A stretch of 18,030 nucleotides of DNA from Candidatus Sulfobium sp. (GCA_037380845.1 JARRRI010000062.1:14371-32400), one strand, 5' to 3'; shown: positions 4,230-18,030, numbered from the stretch's first letter. The notes: generated by a model from the letters alone, not told the origin. Translations and numbers: made by a program.

Positions 4230-5438
4230 ATGGATAAAATCGTAAGCAGCCTCCTTCAGAAAAATAAAACAAAAATTGTCCTTGTCGTCCTTGACGGTCT
4301 GGGAGGTCTTCCCGTTAGCGGTAAGACCGAACTCGAGGCCGCGAACACTCCTTCCATGGATGCGGTTGCTAAAACCGCCGCATGCGGTCTTCACATACCT
4401 GTGGAGCCGGGCATCACCCCCGGGAGTGGACCCGGCCATCTCGCCCTTTTCGGTTATGATCCCAAAGAATGCCAGATCGGCAGGGGGATTCTGGAGGTGC
4501 TGGGACTGGGGCTTGAAGTAAAAAAGACGGACGTTGCGGTGAGGTGCAACTATGCGACGGTTCGGGAAGGAGTTGTTACTGACAGAAGGGCGGGTAGAAT
4601 ACCGACCGATCACAGTCGCAGACTCACGGAAAAACTCCGGTCGGGGATCGGAAAGATAGACGAGGCCGAGGTTATCTTCGCCCCCGGCATGGAGCACAGG
4701 TTCGCCGTGCTTTTGCGGTTCCCCGAGCCCCTTGAACCGGACGCCGCCATGATCTCCGACACCGACCCGCAGAAAGAAGGGCAGCGGCCGCTCTACCCGA
4801 CCCCACTGGCAAAAAATGCCGAAAGGGTGTCGAGGATCGTCGAGAAGCTTATCAATTCCATTCATGAGATATTGAAGGATGAAACAAACGCGAACTATGC
4901 CTTGATGCGGGGCTTTTCAAAGATGCCCCACATACCGACTTTCCAGGATGCCTTCGGGCTCAATGCCCTTGCCATAGCGACTTACCCGATGTATCGGGGC
5001 CTTGCGCGGCTGGTCGAGATGGACACGCCGGCCATAGAAGGGACCGTCCAGGATGAGGTTGATTTCCTGAAAAGCAAATATAACCATTACGATTTCTTTT
5101 TCCTCCACGTGAAGAAGGTCGACTCCTATGGGGAAGACGGTAATTTTCCGGAAAAGTGCCGCAGGATAGAAGAGTTCGACGCCCTTCTGCCCCAGATACT
5201 GGAACTCAAACCGGATGTTCTCATCATCACTGGGGACCATTCGACACCGGCGGTGCTCAAAGGCCACAGCTGGCATCCGGTGCCCGTGCTCCTTCGATCC
5301 CCATACGTGCTTGGCGGGCTTTGTGAGGGCTTCTCGGAAAGGGAATGCACAAAAGGCGAACTCGGGATATTCCGCACCATCCACCTTATGCCGCTCGCCC
5401 TCGCCAACGCAGGCAGACTCAAAAAATTCGGTGCGTAA
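4230..5438 (+). CDS. apgM: 2,3-bisphosphoglycerate-independent phosphoglycerate mutase (ApgM/archaeal type)
   Basis: Metalloenzyme motifs VLDGLGG, TPGSGPGHLALFGYDP, TGDHSTP and HSWHPVP. Confidence 0.93.
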   Translation: MDKIVSSLLQKNKTKIVLVVLDGLGGLPVSGKTELEAANTPSMDAVAKTAACGLHIPVEPGITPGSGPGHLALFGYDPKECQIGRGILEVLGLGLEVKKTDVAVRCNYATVREGVVTDRRAGRIPTDHSRRLTEKLRSGIGKIDEAEVIFAPGMEHRFAVLLRFPEPLEPDAAMISDTDPQKEGQRPLYPTPLAKNAERVSRIVEKLINSIHEILKDETNANYALMRGFSKMPHIPTFQDAFGLNALAIATYPMYRGLARLVEMDTPAIEGTVQDEVDFLKSKYNHYDFFFLHVKKVDSYGEDGNFPEKCRRIEEFDALLPQILELKPDVLIITGDHSTPAVLKGHSWHPVPVLLRSPYVLGGLCEGFSERECTKGELGIFRTIHLMPLALANAGRLKKFGA

Positions 5439-6888
5439 GGCCCATATCGAAGTGAACGACCCGGACCGGAAACTGGTAGAAGCGTCCAGTGGCACAGCCG
5501 GTACAACGCCCCTCCGCCGGGTAGCCCATCTGGTAGACACCCACTGTCATCTCGACATGAGGGAATTCGACCCGGACAGGGATGAAGTGATCAGGCGGGC
5601 GCGGGACGCCGGATTTGAGGCACTCGTTACCGTAGGCTCCGACCTCCACGGGACCGTAAAGGGGATGGAACTCTCCCGACAGTACGATTTCGTCTTCGCC
5701 TCAATCGGTATACATCCCCACGACGCGAAGGATTTCAGAAAAGAAATCCTTCTGCGTCTCAAGGACTGGTCAACAGAGAAAAAGGTCGTGGCCATAGGGG
5801 AAACCGGAATCGACTACCATTACGACCATTCACCCCGCGAGGTGCAGCGGAAGGTCTTCAGGAAGCACCTGGAGCTTGCGGGCGAAAGCGGCCTGCCTGT
5901 CATAATTCACAGCCGGGAGGCTGAAGACGACACCATGGAGATACTCAGGGAATCGGGGATTGTTAACGGAGTGCTTCACTGTTTTTCAGGCGACATGGAA
6001 ATGGCGGAAGAAGCGATGTCCATGGGACTCTTCATCTCACTGGCCGGTCCTGTAACCTTCAAGAAGTCTACGCAGCTGAAGGAGATAGCGGGGATAATAC
6101 CTGACGACTACCTCCTGGTCGAGACTGACGCTCCCTATTTGACTCCCGAGCCGTTCCGGGGAAAGCGCAACGAGCCCGCATTTATGCAGCACACAGTAAA
6201 ACTGATAGCAGAATTGCGGGGCGTGAGCTACGAGGACCTGGCGCGCATCACTACCCTCAACGCCCGTCGTCTCTTCCGGATAGGCTCCGTCCCGGAAAAG
6301 GCTGAAATCGCCTATCAGATCCGTGACAGCCTGTATCTCAATATAACCAACAGGTGCACCAATACCTGCTCCTTCTGCGTCAAGTTCCGCTCCGATTTTG
6401 TGAAGGGGCATAAACTAAGGCTGATGCATGAGCCCGAAGAAGAAGAAATAAAGCGCGAAATCGGAGACCCTTCAGCCTACAGGGAGATCGTGTTCTGCGG
6501 TTACGGAGAACCTCTCCTGAGGATCGAGACCGTAAAGCAGATAGCCAAATGGGTCAAGGACAATAATGGAAAGGTCAGGATCAACACCAACGGCCATGCC
6601 AATCTCATCCATAAGAGGGACGTGGTCCCTGAACTGAAAGGCATTGTGGACAGCATTTCGATCAGTCTCGACGCCCAGGACGAAGAGACCTATAACAGGC
6701 TGTGCAAGCCGGCTTTCAGCAACGCTTATGCCGAAGTCCTCCGGTTTGTTAAACGCTCAACCGAGATAATCCCCGACGTGCAGGTAACGGTAGTAGAACT
6801 GCCCGGAGTCGACGTGGAAAAATGCAAGCGGATAGCCGGCGAACTGGGTGCCCATTTCAGGCTTCGCAAGTACGACGTGGTAGGCTGA
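5431..6888 (+). CDS. TatD-family nuclease fused to a C-terminal TatD-associated radical SAM domain (start uncertain, 5431-5530)
   Basis: TatD motifs VDTHCHLD, GIHPH, AIGETGIDY, IIHSR, GVLHCFSG and VETDAPYLTP. Then YLNITNRCTNTCSFC (CxxxCxxC), VFCGYGEP and RINTNG. An in-frame GTG at 5431 overlaps the apgM 3' end. Confidence 0.92.
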   Translation: MRKAHIEVNDPDRKLVEASSGTAGTTPLRRVAHLVDTHCHLDMREFDPDRDEVIRRARDAGFEALVTVGSDLHGTVKGMELSRQYDFVFASIGIHPHDAKDFRKEILLRLKDWSTEKKVVAIGETGIDYHYDHSPREVQRKVFRKHLELAGESGLPVIIHSREAEDDTMEILRESGIVNGVLHCFSGDMEMAEEAMSMGLFISLAGPVTFKKSTQLKEIAGIIPDDYLLVETDAPYLTPEPFRGKRNEPAFMQHTVKLIAELRGVSYEDLARITTLNARRLFRIGSVPEKAEIAYQIRDSLYLNITNRCTNTCSFCVKFRSDFVKGHKLRLMHEPEEEEIKREIGDPSAYREIVFCGYGEPLLRIETVKQIAKWVKDNNGKVRINTNGHANLIHKRDVVPELKGIVDSISISLDAQDEETYNRLCKPAFSNAYAEVLRFVKRSTEIIPDVQVTVVELPGVDVEKCKRIAGELGAHFRLRKYDVVG

Positions 6889-13028: not shown

Positions 13029-13097
13029 TTCAGATGTCCTCCGCAGCCAAACTACCGATGCTTCCCGATTATGTCGGCAGAATGGTACAATTTCCCA

Positions 13098-13544
13098 ATG
13101 AAGATCATCACTCAAAACAAGAAGGCATTCCATGATTATTCCATCGAAGAGACTCTGGAGGCCGGCATCCTGCTTCAGGGCACCGAGGTGAAATCACTCC
13201 GTGAAGGAAAGGCCAACCTCAGGGACAGTTATGTCATCGTTAAGGATGGAGAGGTCTTTCTCCTGAATTGCCATATCAGTCCCTATTCACACGGAAATAT
13301 CATGAACCACGACCCCCTGAGGACGAGGAAGCTCCTCCTGCACAGAAGGGAGATCACGAAGCTCCAGGGCAAAGCGGCGCAAAAAGGATATTCGCTTATT
13401 CCACTGAAGCTTTACTTCAAGAACTCTCATGTAAAGGTTGAGGTCGGACTGGCCAGAGGGAAGAAACAATATGAAAAAAGAGAGACCATCAAGAAAAGGG
13501 AGGCTGACCGGGAAATAGAGCGCGCTATGAAATCCCGGCGCTGA
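13098..13544 (+). CDS. smpB: SsrA-binding protein
   Basis: [31 protein letters not shown] and GKKQYEKRE motifs. Directly upstream of tmRNA. Confidence 0.98.
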
Positions 13545-13555
13545 ATTGCCGGATA

Positions 13556-13564
13556 TGGTAAAAT
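13556..13564 (+). promoter_or_regulatory. Extended -10 promoter (TGgTAAAAT) for ssrA
   Basis: Motif lies 20 nt upstream of the mature tmRNA 5' end. Confidence 0.55.
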
Positions 13565-13584
13565 ACGATGTATAAGCATACCTC

Positions 13585-13932
13585 GGGGGCGAATGGGCTC
13601 GACGGGGGTTATGAGGCTTATGTGGCATGTCGTGGCTCCATCACCACGTTAAAAGATGGAAACAAACACAAACGCCAACAACGAACTGGCACTCGCTGCT
13701 TAACTAGAAGCAGCTCGCTGCTCCGGGATTGTCTGCGTTCCGGGGATAGCGACAATCAGCAGGCTGGCTGCCGGGGACTTCTCCCGATCCGGCGGCGAGA
13801 CAAGGGGAGATGGGAATCCCGGAAGCCTGGTTGCCGGCGTCCCGGATTCCGAGATCTAAAAGACAGCCTACACATGTAGAAGCATAAGTGTAGTACCTTC
13901 GGACGCGGGTTCGATTCCCGCCGCCTCCACCA
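13585..13932 (+). ncRNA. ssrA: tmRNA, tag (A)ANNELALAA
   Basis: 5' GGGGGCG pairs with 3' CGCCTCC-ACCA, including G3:U70. T arm GCGGG-TTCGATT-CCCGC. Tag ORF at 13674-13703 reads GCC AAC AAC GAA CTG GCA CTC GCT GCT TAA. Confidence 0.97.
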
Positions 13933-14333
13933 ATAACCTCTTTTAATATCAAGGGGTTATGCTGTCTCCTTTTACATAACCGCGGTGTGCAGATGGTGTA
14001 CAAAAGACAAACCGGCCCCCAGCTGTTCAAAATTTCCCCCTTTATATGGGCATGAGCAAAAGTAAGACTGCTATTGGGGGGTATCTGTGTAAAAAAAGGT
14101 GTATACGGGTGTGCGCGGGAAAGGATTCCTTTAAAAAATGCGACCATCGGGTCCTGGAGCTACCGGCCTAGCACCGAAAAGAAAGAAACCTGTCAGAGCT
14201 CCTCATTTTGTTGCGGTACTCGCATTTGGCACCGAACCACAAAATCAGGCCTCTACGATGACGGATGCCGCTCTATGCCGCTCTATACTTGACCTCTTTT
14301 GGTACTTTAAAATGCCGTGAACATAGCTCTGCA

Positions 14334-14992
14334 CTAAAAAGAACTCACATAACCACTACCGTCAGGATTCAAGGTCCAGGAAACCAAAAATAGACCAACT
14401 TCACTAACTCTAAACGTATTTGTAAAATCAAACCACTCTGGCAAATGGGTGATTCTTATCCCGACTTCCTCATTGTAATAAAGAGTCCCGCATACATTCC
14501 AATTGCTGGTCGACGACAAAGGGGAGACGAGCGCTTTTGAACTATTTACCCGTGAGCTATTCGTTGTCAACGTGAAGTAAAAGCTGGCCCCTTGGGAAAA
14601 CAATAAGCCCAACCCACAACCTAGACCTAAGTCGGAAGAAGCAGCAAAGTTGCACGAAGAACCAATGCACTTGAAGAAAATCGTCAATGATCTTTCGGTT
14701 GTGTCTGACTAATCACAGCCTGATATGCTGAGCTACTTATATTCCATGTCACGCCCGTCGGCTGCGGCTCTACGCCAACATTCACCGGGATCATGACCAA
14801 ATTTACCGGGTCCCACTGAAAATCTATCCAATAGGAGCCTTCCGCCCATGGCGCTGTGATATGATGAATCCTGATAGTATCTGTTGCCGTCACGTCTACT
14901 TTCGAAGCTGAGAGATTCAAGGGGTACTGTTCGGCCGTTGCCACTGAAACAAGAAAAAGGAAACTGAATACTAACCCAACGAATACTTTCAT
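14334..14992 (-). pseudogene. Secreted hypothetical protein, probably split by a frameshift near 14684-14710 (or two coupled ORFs, 14684-14992 and 14334-14687)
   Basis: Strong SD AAGGAGG and signal peptide MKVFVGLVFSFLFLVSVATA. The frame ends ...AVISQTQPKDH*, while the overlapping frame continues DTTERSLTIFFKC... with only a TTG start and no evident SD. Confidence 0.55.
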
Positions 14993-15130
14993 AATTCCCT
15001 CCTTATCGGTGTCTGAAAACTGTTTTCATGAGCCCCATAAAAAGGGTACTACTTTTCAAGGCAAAATAGAAGGTCCAGGGTTCGCATCTCCTGGACTTAC
15101 TTTTGTACGTCGATTTGTTCCGCCCCTTGT

Positions 15131-15237
15131 TACCGTCCATAAAACATTTGATTTATGGACAGCCACTTTACAGAGGCTTATCTCGCTCCAGCTCTCATTT
15201 CCTCGTGCCAGAATTCTAGAGGGTTTTATGGACAGCC
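15131..15237. repeat. IS-end/MITE-like remnant with (GGCT)GTCCATAAA inverted repeats
   Basis: GTCCATAAAAC (15135-15145) is inverted relative to TTTATGGACAGCC (15152-15164) and GTTTTATGGACAGCC (15223-15237). Confidence 0.5.
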
Positions 15238-15307
15238 GACTGAGTAGTACACCGACAACTTCTCAGTTTCGCGGCAGCGAAACCATTGAGACAGAGGAAA
15301 CTGACAG

Positions 15308-15368
15308 ATATAACGCACCGGTCACGCGCCGCCCTTCTGGCGCGTCGCTGTGGACCGGCATATTTCAA
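15308..15368 (-). other. Integron attC-like site (61 bp) with a degenerate R'' box
   Basis: Minus strand reads TTGAAAT (R'', AAT instead of AAC) - ATGCC - GGTCCACA (L'' with extra C) - GC-rich hairpin - CGTGACC (L') - GGTGC - GTTATAT (R'). Confidence 0.55.
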
Positions 15369-15471
15369 TTGAACCATGATTTTTTCCAGACCAACGCTTG
15401 CGTCACTTGCCTCGTGGAGCGGAGTGGAACGAGGTCAAGTGGACCCGGATGTTGGGACTCTTTTGTCTCCT

Positions 15472-16062
15472 TCAGTTCCTCAACACCATGCCGGTATCCG
15501 TCAGGTGCTTGACCATCGGCCCTGAACTCGCAAAGACGACTGCCGCCACGGATGATGCAGCGGTCGGGAGCCATTGCTGCAGACTGCGGATCTCAGCGTC
15601 AGAAATGCCTTTGTGCGGTTGCCAAAGGTGAACAAGATATCCACAGCAGCAACCACTGTTCTTCAGTTTCCTATCGTCGTCCTTAAGGTGATCCAGTCCG
15701 TAGTTTAACCCCATCTCTACGACGAAGGCGGGACGGATCCGGCCGGCTGTGAAGTCTTCGACCGTGTGCTCGGGTATGTCCTCGGGATCAAGGATGGCGA
15801 GGTCAAAGTTGCCTCGTCTCCTCCGCTTCTCTGGCCGGGGCTTGGTTTCCGGCCATTCCTTGTGTATGAGGTTCGTGCTCCGTCCGGCGTCACCCCTGAG
15901 CCTATGGAGTCCCTGAAGTGCCCGGTGCACCGTAAGCATGCTGTAAAGCTCACAGTGGATCGAGTGCTCACACCGATGGATGTACGGCTCACGGGTAAAG
16001 TTGTCGACGAGGCTGTCGATGGCGGTTTCGAGGATTTCTTTTACGGTTCCATGAGAATCCAC
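15472..16062 (-). CDS. Hypothetical protein with a PD-(D/E)xK nuclease-like motif layout
   Basis: EHSIHCELY helix, HKEWP, GNFDLAIL, FVVEMGLN and DDDRKL. SD GGGAGG lies upstream of the GTG. Confidence 0.65.
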   Translation of the reverse strand: MDSHGTVKEILETAIDSLVDNFTREPYIHRCEHSIHCELYSMLTVHRALQGLHRLRGDAGRSTNLIHKEWPETKPRPEKRRRRGNFDLAILDPEDIPEHTVEDFTAGRIRPAFVVEMGLNYGLDHLKDDDRKLKNSGCCCGYLVHLWQPHKGISDAEIRSLQQWLPTAASSVAAVVFASSGPMVKHLTDTGMVLRN

Positions 16063-16418
16063 GTCTGCATCTTCCTCCCTACACCAGCTTCAACAATCTA
16101 TGGTCAGGCACCGTTCCAGCCCAATTGCTTCATGAGGCGACCGAACTTCCGCTGAAATTCTCGCCGCAATAATTACAGTAGTAATCTACAATCTTGGTTG
16201 GGCTCTGTCAATTATTTGTTTCAGGAAGGAAGGTTGCGGCGGCCGATCTTCTTTCCGGAACGAGCAGTTTGTCCCGTACTATAGCCCAGGCGAAGTTGTT
16301 CGGCGGTATTGGTCAAATTTTCATCTTCTTCCTGTTAATCACACTGTCACGTTTTGTCATAGTCTTGAAGTTTCTTGAGGCATACGAGAGGTTAACAGTG
16401 CCTCAATATTGAATCGAT

Positions 16419-16447
16419 TTGACGGATGTGAAATTCATACGTATACT
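16419..16447 (+). promoter_or_regulatory. Sigma70 promoter upstream of the leader ORF / tRNA / yedF unit
   Basis: TTGACG (16419-16424), 17-nt spacer, TATACT (16442-16447). Confidence 0.8.
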
Positions 16448-16481
16448 GAAGAAGACTATTGCGTTGAAAGGAGGTGGACAG

Positions 16482-16607
16482 GTGATCGCCCGTTTTATGC
16501 CGGGGCTTTTTAAAGCCGGGTTTGGTTGAGAATGTTCGTCAAAAGCCTGGTCGAGGTTTTCCGGCGTGGAGTTCGGCGGTCATTGCGGTTCACGCTCCGA
16601 AGAGTAG
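16482..16607 (+). CDS. Putative 41-aa selenocysteine-containing leader peptide MIARFMPGLFKAGFG-U-ECSSKAWSRFSGVEFGGHCGSRSEE (15 aa if UGA terminates)
   Basis: SD AAAGGAGGTG (16467-16476), GTG at 16482, in-frame TGA at 16527-16529 followed by a SECIS-like hairpin, TAG at 16605-16607. Confidence 0.6.
16537..16566 (+). promoter_or_regulatory. Bacterial SECIS-like hairpin
   Basis: Upper stem AAAGCCT (16542-16548) / AGGTTTT (16554-16560). Loop GGTCG begins 19 nt after the UGA. Lower stem CGTC/GGCG. Resembles the E. coli fdhF SECIS in its GGUC loop and spacing. Confidence 0.6.
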
Positions 16608-16783
16608 CACTTAGTCCGCCTAAGTAGATCGAGCCAACCCTCCAATAAAAACTCCATAAGGAAAAAGATTTTCTAACCTCCATAGCTGTCTCAGGCAATA
16701 ATTGTCCGCTAATCATGCTGAAATTTCCGGAGATGCATGGGCACCTGGAACTGCCCTGTATGCTTTAGAAGAATGAACCCAGA

Positions 16784-16877
16784 GGGGGATAAGGGGCTGG
16801 TGCCCCACCTGGTCTGCAAAACTGTGCTCGCGCCCTGAGGGGGTTGCGGTGGGTTCGATTCCCACTATCCTCCTCCA
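16784..16877 (+). tRNA. tRNA-Sec-like tRNA with Cys identity (selC*-type tRNA-Cys, anticodon GCA)
   Basis: Acceptor GGGGGATA/TATCCTCC (8 bp), U73 and encoded CCA. D arm GGGGC-TGGT-GCCCC. Anticodon loop CT-GCA-AA (16814-16820). Long variable arm at 16829-16848. T arm GTGGG-TTCGATT-CCCAC. Total 94 nt. Confidence 0.88.
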
Positions 16878-16901
16878 AAAAAGTGAAAGGAGACTCAAAA
16901 A

Positions 16902-17507
16902 ATGATAATTGACGCAAGGGGTCTTGGATGCCCTAAGCCGGTCTTGTTGGCGGAGGAAGCCCTCGCCGGGATAAAGGACGGTATAGTGGAAGTGCTGGTG
17001 GATGATGAAGGTTCATCGGAAAATGTCTTGACATTCGCTCAAAGTGCCGGCTGTTATGGCGAAGTTTCCAGAGAAGGTCGGGACTTCCGGGTCAAAATTG
17101 TGAAGGGATATACTTGCCGGCCTGCCAATACAATATCGGAAAAGAAAAGGGAGGAGGTCATAAATTCAAGGAAGGACATACTTATGGTGGTGGCTACTGA
17201 TCAGTTGGGCAAAGAGGAGGAGCTTGGCCGGATACTCATCAAAGGATTTTTTGAAACAATGACAGTAACGAAAGAAATTCCGCACACGATTTTCTTTCTC
17301 AATACAGGGGTGAAACTTACGACCCTTAATGAGGAACTGATAACCGTGCTGAATAAGATCGAGCAGATGGGGGCAGAGATCTTTTCGTGCGGCACCTGTC
17401 TCAAATATTACGGGCTTGAATCGAGCCTCAAGGTCGGTTACCGAGGGACAACCAACAACATCCTTGAGGGCATGGCTGACAGAATGAAAACCGTGTGGAT
17501 AGGCTAG
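16902..17507 (+). CDS. yedF: Sulfurtransferase-like selenium metabolism protein YedF (TusA/SirA plus DsrE-like domains)
   Basis: N-terminal IDARGLGCPKP (CPxP). C-terminal DQLG..ELGRIL, FFLNTGVKLT and SCGTCL. SD GAAAGGAG; starts 24 nt after the tRNA CCA. Confidence 0.88.
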   Translation: MIIDARGLGCPKPVLLAEEALAGIKDGIVEVLVDDEGSSENVLTFAQSAGCYGEVSREGRDFRVKIVKGYTCRPANTISEKKREEVINSRKDILMVVATDQLGKEEELGRILIKGFFETMTVTKEIPHTIFFLNTGVKLTTLNEELITVLNKIEQMGAEIFSCGTCLKYYGLESSLKVGYRGTTNNILEGMADRMKTVWIG

Positions 17508-17766: not shown

Positions 17767-18030
17767 ATGAGAACACTAAAGATGTACGGCGGGATAGTCT
17801 TGGCGATCATCTTGCTCCTTGTCGGCATCGTCTTCTTGAAGGACCCCTACTCGGCCGGTCAATTCGTTTCCAACTATTTCGCCGTGGGAGACTTTGCGCG
17901 AGGCGTTTTTTCGGCAGGCCAATTTTCGGCGGGCATATTTGCCGCCGGCACCTTCGCGATCGGGGTGTTCTCCGCCGGGATTTTTTCTGTTGGCGTATTC
18001 TCCATTGGAGTGTTTTCGTTTGGGCTGTGC
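17767..18030 (+). CDS. Membrane protein with G-x-F-[SA]-x pentapeptide repeats (partial, runs off the window)
   Basis: Manual translation: MRTLKMYGGIVLAIILLLVGIVFLKDPYSAGQFVSNYFAVGDFARGVFSAGQFSAGIFAAGTFAIGVFSAGIFSVGVFSIGVFSFGLC. SD GGGAGG. Confidence 0.8.
   Translation, partial: MRTLKMYGGIVLAIILLLVGIVFLKDPYSAGQFVSNYFAVGDFARGVFSAGQFSAGIFAAGTFAIGVFSAGIFSVGVFSIGVFSFGLC

Follow-up and report, generated by a model that had tools for sequence, protein, structure and literature searches.

The stretch of DNA analysed here, 18,030 nucleotides (nt) from Candidatus Sulfobium sp. (GCA_037380845.1, JARRRI010000062.1:14371-32400; hereafter the window, with positions counted from its first letter), carries, ahead of a tRNA gene and yedF, a short leader open reading frame (ORF) that starts at 16482 and runs into an in-frame UGA, followed by a hairpin resembling a bacterial selenocysteine insertion sequence (SECIS). 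We regard it as a better-than-even interpretation that this is a cis-regulatory leader, which would turn SelB-dependent recoding of the UGA into expression of the downstream genes. At the level of sequence comparison, the copies of the unit show that it is conserved, that its leader is translated, that its hairpin is SECIS-like, that the frame beyond the UGA is kept open, that a helix (P1) spans the ribosome-binding site and that the genomic context is linked to selenium.

An earlier interpretation generated from the DNA alone (the sequence-only reading) had described a Shine-Dalgarno (SD) sequence, the GTG at 16482, 15 codons, the TGA, 25 more codons and a TAG, as well as a 7-bp stem 12 nt after the UGA capped by GGTCG. 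On re-reading and translation the ORF and its signals were exact to the base, and the stem was confirmed at 16542-16560. With TGA read as selenocysteine (Sec, U), the window translates as VIARFMPGLFKAGFG-U-ECSSKAWSRFSGVEFGGHCGSRSEE. The unit and the genes behind it are laid out as follows:

16419..16447, + strand: sigma-70-type promoter, TTGACG - 17 nt - TATACT, scoring 10/12
16467..16476, + strand: SD AAAGGAGGTG of the leader ORF, overlapping the 5' strand of helix P1
16470..16490, + strand: P1 5' strand, GGAGGUGGAC, one unpaired A, GGUGAUCGCC, comprising the SD, the start codon and codons 2-3
16482..16526, + strand: leader ORF, 15 sense codons including the GTG start (16482-16484), peptide VIARFMPGLFKAGFG
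16527..16529, + strand: in-frame UGA, candidate recoding site for Sec, or for Cys via tRNAReC
16530..16607, + strand: read-through extension, 25 sense codons and then TAG (16605-16607), unconserved in sequence, conserved in openness
16542..16560, + strand: SECIS-like hairpin AAAGCCU-GGUCG-AGGUUUU, seven pairs with one G-U, the stem beginning 12 nt past the TGA
16575..16598, + strand: P1 3' strand, GGCGGUCAUU ... GUUCAC G CUCC, anti-SD/anti-start, inside the extension ORF
16608..16783, + strand: spacer from leader to tRNA, C-rich and G-poor, including AACCUCC (16676-16682) and, at 16739-16756, a weak hairpin of terminator type followed by TGTATGCTTT
16784..16877, + strand: tRNA-Cys, tRNA-Sec-shaped, 94 nt, anticodon GCA, U73, encoded CCA (ARAGORN; Rfam RF01852, 47.3 bits against a gathering threshold of 47)
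16902..17507, + strand: yedF, sulfurtransferase-like selenium metabolism protein (TIGR03527, 191.8 bits against a cut-off of 110; Pfam TusA and weak DsrE)

Conservation and spread of the unit

When 41 relatives were searched at the DNA level, a genome from another family gave a 265-nt match of 76% identity that spans precisely the small ORF. In the pairwise comparison the start is changed from GTG to ATG and the 15 codons carry synonymous changes, while the TGA is kept and is followed by insertions and deletions that are not multiples of three. Across the order, 317 genomes were searched by a BLAST-type method without conditioning on the TGA; 29 had matches at E ≤ 0.01, of which 16 were convincing, 14 at E ≤ 1.8e-7 and two by virtue of homologous flanks. 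In this search one family gave matches in eight of its 12 genomes, and the window's own genus in none of three. Scanning a single representative of each prokaryotic species for the motif yielded 21 loci, of which 19 carry the label Nitrospirae, Nitrospirota, Nitrospira or Thermodesulfovibrionia, and a metagenome scan added 11 further loci. After removal of duplicates 34 distinct copies remained, those derived from the pattern included. So far, the leader unit thus appears nearly confined to genomes and metagenomes of the Nitrospirota/Thermodesulfovibrionia. A covariance model built from eight close copies matched all 34 and none of 11 tRNAReC loci that lack the unit. For Rfam, no family was found for the leader element within 16380-16900, either at the gathering threshold or at E up to 10. 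The recurrence of the unit elsewhere indicates that the small ORF is more than a product of chance.

The stop of the leader is TGA in each of the 19 copies recovered independently of this codon in which it is visible (the window, 16 strong matches and the two weak matches L046 and L049; G122 is cut at the contig end). Among 1727 long ORFs of this genome TGA accounts for 48.9% of the stops, TAA for 28.1% and TAG for 22.9%, and the extension itself ends in TAA, TGA and TAG in 9, 9 and 3 of 21 listed copies, respectively. UAA or UAG at the UGA position of homologues had been named beforehand as what would speak against recoding; neither was encountered, TGA being present in every copy seen. The loop of the hairpin lies 16-21 nt from the UGA and its sequence, GGTCG, is invariant. 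Stem pairs 1-6 are paired in 34/34 copies, the three loop-proximal pairs being invariant and pairs 4-6 alternating solely between G-U and A-U.

A translated leader before a SECIS-like hairpin

The eight codons preceding the UGA are conserved as amino acids, following (G/R)(L/I)FKx(G/A)FG. Gly at position -1 is found in 27/27 copies, Phe at -2 in 25/27 and Lys at -5 in 24/27, with synonymous codon variation, and the residue at -3 draws on the full set of four Gly and four Ala codons. Across codons -8 to -1 the entropy amounts to 0.59, 0.46 and 1.22 bits at the first, second and third codon position, and from this third-position excess we conclude that the leader ORF is translated, as judged by its pattern of substitution. 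The start codon interchanges between GTG, ATG and TTG, and GGAGGT of the SD is perfect in 20/27 copies.

The promoter at 16419..16447 is the sole promoter-like site on the + strand that a promoter scan detected within 16150-17000, and the same scan found no further + strand site in the interval from leader to yedF. At the aligned position most homologues keep TTGAC and TATAMT, and in L035 and L032 the scan recovers the corresponding site. In this respect the arrangement resembles that of a leader-peptide attenuator, in that a short translated leader with a promoter to itself precedes genes of the same orientation.

The hairpin can be compared with working SECIS elements of the same cell. In fdhA1 of this genome the UGA is followed by 12 nt and then by GUGGCC-GGUCU-GGCCAC, placing the loop at 18 nt; in fdhA2 the loop reads GGGCU and is likewise 18 nt from the UGA. 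The Sec-related genes of this genome include SelB (331.6 bits) together with SelD and two FdhA genes, each of the latter three having a single in-frame TGA, while a canonical tRNA-Sec(UCA), scoring 73 bits, is found on another contig and a canonical tRNA-Cys also lies elsewhere. Considering the 12-nt spacing, the stem and the GGUC loop held in common with fdhA1, the leader hairpin matches a functional SECIS of its own genome. It closely resembles the fdhA1 element in spacing, stem length and loop, and SelB binding is predicted. The fdhF-like SECIS proposed in the sequence-only reading is hence borne out in loop and geometry by the fdhA1 element of the same cell. Together with the location of the UGA in a translated frame, a hairpin at decoding distance and the presence of selB, selD and selC, this makes the interpretation as a UGA-SECIS pair well supported, as far as predicted elements can be compared.

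A candidate pairing of ORF codons -8 to -6 (GGGCUUUU) with the 5' arm of the hairpin, which would represent the '1:2' step of a trp-like cascade, was rejected since it decays in the L041/L042 group as judged by eye. Similarly discarded was a small hairpin within the ORF (16504-16517, from the terminator scan), unconserved beyond the closest group.

A helix over the ribosome-binding site

Folded as a single sequence, the whole leader of the window is no more stable than shuffles (z -0.40). RNAalifold analysis of the nine closest copies, on the other hand, recovered the P1 pairing with the SECIS-like hairpin intact inside the helix. For 23 divergent copies MAFFT and RNAalifold gave a misaligned 3' half and a weak, different structure (-5.9 kcal/mol), a result that we replaced by alignment-free duplex tests and a covariance-model alignment. 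In the former, the duplex was compared with 200 shuffles, giving a mean z of -2.8, with at most 5% of the shuffles equalling it in 22/27 copies. Moreover, the 5' strand pairs better with its own partner than with partners from divergent copies in 24/27 cases, and in 23/27 when the SD is excluded.

In the model-fitted alignment of 34 copies, 92.7% of the P1 cells are paired, compared to 83.3% upon shuffling (reached in 0/500 trials) and 39-53% when the strands are slid against each other. Compensatory double changes are seen at 15/27 pairs (76 cells), compared to 5-10 pairs (9-24 cells) in the slid controls, and 8/10 pairs of the start-codon half are compensatory. For the SECIS-like hairpin (helix 3) 96.6% of the cells are paired. 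The sequence-only reading had called for a comparison of peptide and RNA-structure conservation: the peptide is conserved before the UGA and not after it, where the hairpin is kept, and the pairing of P1, with its strands on either side of the UGA, is kept as well.

As the 3' strand of P1 lies inside the extension ORF, a ribosome reading through the UGA must unzip the helix. The stop of the extension falls at or after the end of this strand in 23/27 copies, at a median of 13 nt. A ribosome halting at the UGA leaves P1 free to close.

The putative read-through extension

In all 27 copies the frame in phase with the UGA remains open for 20-38 codons. Out-of-frame controls reach at least 20 open codons in 25/54 cases, with minima of 2 and 0 codons. 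The spacing from the UGA to the hairpin core varies between 13 and 18 nt through insertions and deletions that are not multiples of three, and the invariant hairpin is consequently read as SKAWSRFSG, QKPGRGFP or SLVEVFRL. That the frame set by the UGA is open whichever phase is used is as expected under selection for ribosome passage, and read-through thus appears to be under selection judging from the pattern of open frames.

This bears on the possibility that the unit is a SelB-binding RNA without recoding, in which the UGA is an ordinary stop and the hairpin serves SelB as an operator or decoy, either in cis or within a small, stable RNA titrating it. The SECIS-like hairpin would suit such a role, the domain closed by P1 and equipped with its own promoter looks compact and structured, and some loci have a strong hairpin and a U-run about 200 nt downstream that could end a small transcript; autoregulation by SelB in E. 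coli is moreover mentioned in the literature (PMC8124441). Binding does not, however, require a UGA at working distance from the loop in all copies, a frame in phase that is open in 27/27, or an extension stop that tracks the end of P1, and we therefore consider this explanation unlikely.

Still less probable is a true micro-selenoprotein, in which the 15 residues, Sec and a tail of 20-38 residues would be functional, for instance as a selenium carrier, and P1 would merely tune synthesis. The N-terminal motif is certainly under amino-acid-level selection, the UGA and the SECIS are invariant, the extension is always open and the setting is among selenium genes. The tail is, however, unconserved and read in three frames, and after the UGA the entropy is 1.63, 1.08 and 1.39 bits with no codon periodicity. 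Cys at +2 is present in 6/27 copies, and a Cys codon (TGC/TGT) replaces the UGA in 0/34, a count from the DNA copies, no protein-database search having been made with so short a peptide. Selenoprotein genes are recognised by conservation on both sides of Sec and by Cys homologues at the Sec position, neither of which is observed. A further atypical trait is the covarying helix over the ribosome-binding site: to our knowledge, no selenoprotein gene has such a sequestering helix with an obligatorily translated 3' strand.

The proposals of the sequence-only reading are affected accordingly. Its U-x-C motif is present in the window (G-U-E-C) but is not general, and in view of the three-frame tail, the missing periodicity and the few copies with Cys at +2, neither the motif nor a conserved selenoprotein is supported. 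Homologues, which it had recommended looking for, were found at the DNA level with the UGA and, among 34 copies, none with a Cys codon in its place; a conventional micro-selenoprotein is likewise not supported. Of the two options that it had left standing, the regulatory leader fits the data better.

Downstream genes and an alternative regulator

The gene directly behind the leader is, by its predicted features, a tRNACys of the tRNAReC / selC* class. Members are characterised by a tRNA-Sec-like fold, a length of at least 80 nt, an anticodon GCA or UCA and U as discriminator in the account of PMC13582414, with the hallmarks published by Mukai et al. 2017 (PMC5389517). The window tRNA has the Sec-like fold, exceeds 80 nt and carries GCA; its 3' end, ...TATCCTCC-T-CCA, identifies U73 as discriminator, and a canonical selC is located elsewhere. 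For other members of the class, charging by CysRS and delivery by SelB have been reported (PMC13582414). The contig stops at 18030, leaving the remainder of the yedF cluster beyond view.

Downstream of the leader, RF01852 scores at or above its gathering threshold in the window, L034, L040, L043 and L058, and reaches 39.8 bits in L042. ARAGORN assigns Cys GCA in the window, L034, L043, L058 and L092, and 'Tyr GTA' in L040. The latter tRNA (L040 1773-1868, + strand) is Sec-shaped, scores 58.8 bits as Rfam tRNA-Sec and has the anticodon loop CUGUAAA, one base off the GCA of its relatives, which explains the Tyr call. yedF follows in the window and in L040, the two loci tested. In other loci the leader precedes a double-cubane-cluster reductase of the HGD-D family, as in L031 (479 bits) and, by eye, in about ten more with the reductase N-terminus MSGKDY/MSKDY/MKQKDY. 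A third class is represented by a secreted transglutaminase-like protein, tested in L041, with the signal-peptide N-terminus identified elsewhere by eye. STRING partners of YedF/YedE include 2-hydroxyglutaryl-CoA dehydratase subunits, the activase and a transglutaminase-like enzyme (Lin et al. 2015, PMC5322559). Judging from these predicted products, with some loci assigned by eye, the leader unit always points into selenium-linked genes.

In L030 (G148) and L034 (G146) a truncated reductase N-terminus (MSGKDYTKMWEGL...; MSGKD...) is situated between the leader and the tRNA/yedF. These remnants suggest that the tRNAReC-yedF module was put behind a former reductase leader.

For tRNAReC loci without the leader, 5/6 of the tested upstream ORFs encode the selenium-associated LysR regulator NF040786 (274-326 bits), and two of the loci flanked by LysR belong to the window's genus. 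The genome of the window has the LysR regulator elsewhere, not adjoining a tRNA. The position of LysR directly upstream of leaderless tRNAReC genes points to two different devices occupying one regulatory position for the same tRNA. In L012, L014, L015, L018 and L020, where NF040786 adjoins a Sec-like tRNA-Cys, a conserved box, ATAG...TATCTATTTG...TATAG, is present between the two and may constitute a LysR binding site, given its location. A leader sensing a non-selenium signal through its nascent peptide or otherwise, with hairpin and UGA kept for RNA structure only, is very improbable. Its conserved C-terminal peptide with Gly right before the stop does recall the stalling peptide TnaC, and P1 and other pairings show that RNA structure counts. 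Against this, all classes of downstream genes that we examined have a link to selenium, the hairpin corresponds in its loop to the fdhA SECIS of this genome, and relatives have a selenium-specific LysR regulator in the equivalent place.

We also observed that the heptamer CCUGGUC occurs both in the SECIS-like hairpin (16546-16552) and on the 5' side of the tRNA-Cys anticodon stem (16809-16815), and is conserved as CCUGGUCUGCAAAAC in other copies, which may be a coincidence.

Proposed mechanism

From these data we infer an action of SelB at the leader, a cis-regulatory output and a direction of control, as follows. Transcription would begin at the unit's own promoter, and a ribosome would load co-transcriptionally at the strong SD, translating 15 codons to a UGA that stands 12 nt before a hairpin of the organism's formate dehydrogenase SECIS type. 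With SelB and Sec-tRNASec (or Cys-tRNAReC) at hand, the ribosome would read through, melting first the SECIS and then the anti-SD/anti-start strand of P1, to stop just past the helix. Lacking the SelB complex, it would terminate at the UGA, and P1 would shut over the ribosome-binding site. The two states of RNA and ribosome would differ while the polymerase crosses the C-rich spacer, and would thereby set the output, tRNAReC and yedF in the window and double-cubane reductase or transglutaminase-like proteins elsewhere.

How the output is executed is suggested by the spacers to a limited extent. C exceeds G in the spacer of 25/27 copies, a composition that would suit loading of Rho, the bias being modest. 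In a few loci a long composite hairpin is present, more stable than shuffles in L035, L030 and L037 (z -2.4 to -3.9; L032 not significant), with AACCUCA/UGAGGUU as outer arms and U-runs following in L035 and L037. Its 5' arm pairs about equally well with the 3' arm of the SECIS-like hairpin (-12.5 to -16 kcal/mol in L030, L032, L035 and L036), making this predicted pairing a candidate antiterminator. In L034 and L037 a motif past the hairpin is complementary to the SECIS loop and 3' arm.

A number of observations weigh against the interpretation as a cis-regulatory leader. No universal output device was detected: in a strict scan 3/27 loci have a perfect terminator in the interval from leader to next gene, the terminator scan of L035 gave none, and long hairpins followed by U-runs exist only in a few loci before the double-cubane reductase (L035, L030 and L037). 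In the window itself the spacer is divergent and its fold is not significantly more stable than that of shuffled sequences (z -0.42), and the excess of C over G is modest, the value of 1.72 for the window corresponding to approximately the 93rd percentile of genome windows. SelB is present in 14/15 of the tested leader genomes, and since it is also carried by 292/317 genomes of the order, its presence does not discriminate. The homologues are all related, so that the counts are not independent, and the covariation counts stem from an alignment fitted to the structure, although the slid controls and the alignment-free tests agree with them. Finally, the peptide is more conserved than a plain leader would need, hence the peptide itself may matter. 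In view of the terminator and spacer results, we have stated the mechanism as a passage from recoding outcome to RNA/ribosome state to expression.

Regarding direction, we lean towards failed recoding turning the genes on, considering that YedF and a tRNA placing Cys for Sec would be useful under selenium scarcity. The opposite direction would mirror, by analogy, fdhFSec of Treponema primitia. A more specific proposal, to which we give slightly less than even odds, is that the unit is a dedicated sensor of selenium status, where Sec insertion or termination by the pioneer ribosome would set the synthesis of tRNAReC, YedF and other selenium-linked gene products. The controlled tRNA may itself decode the sensor codon, forming a homeostatic loop, and how release factor and SelB compete for the UGA might be adjusted by the nascent peptide (G/R)(L/I)FKx(G/A)FG.

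Other features of the window

Just upstream of the leader promoter, the sequence at 16216-16332 recurs at G000:C18:16062-16178 (- strand, 96% identity) and, in part, at C59:1670-1720 (93%), and two congeneric genomes also contain partial matches; this repeat possibly represents a small element of mobile or repetitive nature. The region 13071-16400 comprises smpB (13071-13544), the transfer-messenger RNA (tmRNA; 13585-13932) and then about 2.5 kb of lower G+C (0.44-0.47 at 14000-15400), the ORFs of which gave no Pfam match. The closest counterparts of the window's leader (76-83%) come from another family, and its own genus yielded no copy. Combined with the low G+C, this similarity suggests an island acquired beside ssrA. 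No repeat of the tmRNA 3' end, the mark of an island border, was found within the window.

Further upstream, 5215-6888 (+ strand) is a single predicted ORF of 557 amino acids, a possible fusion, with a TatD-like domain (107-355) followed by radical SAM (375-540); its predicted start overlaps the preceding phosphoglycerate-mutase-like ORF (4230-5438). At the other end, 17767-18030 (+ strand) is an ORF running off the contig with a hydrophobic N-terminus, GxFSAG/GIFAAG/GVFS repeats and a weak, sub-threshold match to the GLTT repeat.

Relation to known systems

Selenium sensing in bacteria is poorly understood, the LysR_Se family being the sole dedicated regulator proposed, and what tRNAReC does in the cell and how it is controlled are described as open questions (PMC13582414; Lin et al. 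2015, PMC5322559). The window tRNA shares the hallmarks of tRNAReC / selC* reported by Mukai et al. 2017 (PMC5389517), in the main text of which, supplements aside, the terms 'SECIS' and 'YedF' are absent and a UGA/SECIS leader is not described. More generally, we found no account in the literature of a leader ORF with a UGA and SECIS preceding tRNAReC, yedF or genes related to them, prior mention being possible. If the proposed mechanism is correct, the unit would be the first case known to us of Sec insertion serving as a regulatory sensor outside a selenoprotein gene, and would join tRNAReC, YedF, double-cubane reductases and transglutaminase-like proteins in one regulon. It would also provide a compact selenium-responsive part, consisting of a promoter, 15 codons, a UGA, a 19-nt hairpin and an anti-SD strand. 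Regulatory UGA-SECIS units of this kind could then be mislabelled as 'micro-selenoproteins' by gene callers and SECIS-based selenoprotein finders.

The nearest documented mechanism is that of Treponema primitia fdhFSec, where selenium controls transcription past the UGA/SECIS (Matson et al. 2013, mBio, PMC3892789). In both cases selenium supply would decide ribosome passage at a UGA and SECIS, altering downstream transcript levels. The T. primitia UGA is however inside a selenoenzyme gene, whereas here other genes, a tRNA among them, would be controlled by a separate leader of 15 codons that has P1 and a promoter of its own.

The hairpin itself resembles the E. coli fdhF type, a SECIS with a GGUC-type apical loop, in its position 12 nt past the UGA, its stem of 6-7 bp, its loop GGUCN and the presence of SelB. 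It differs in that the leader stem is rich in A-U and G-U and invariant across families, while the surrounding coding sequence is unconserved as protein. The selAB operator of E. coli, a SECIS-like element through which SelB autoregulates, is similar insofar as a SECIS-like RNA regulates rather than making a selenoenzyme. We know of no translated ORF ending in a UGA at decoding distance ahead of the selAB element; the leader, in contrast, conserves the recoding geometry and an open extension. In the trp, his and tna attenuators the supply of charged tRNA sets the position of the ribosome on the leader and thereby chooses the RNA state. The present unit is analogous in having a short translated leader on which the position of the ribosome would choose between RNA states before the structural genes. 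In contrast to these systems, an intrinsic terminator is evident only in a minority of loci, the leader would sense an aminoacyl-tRNA brought by SelB to a stop codon, and a tRNA would be among the products controlled.

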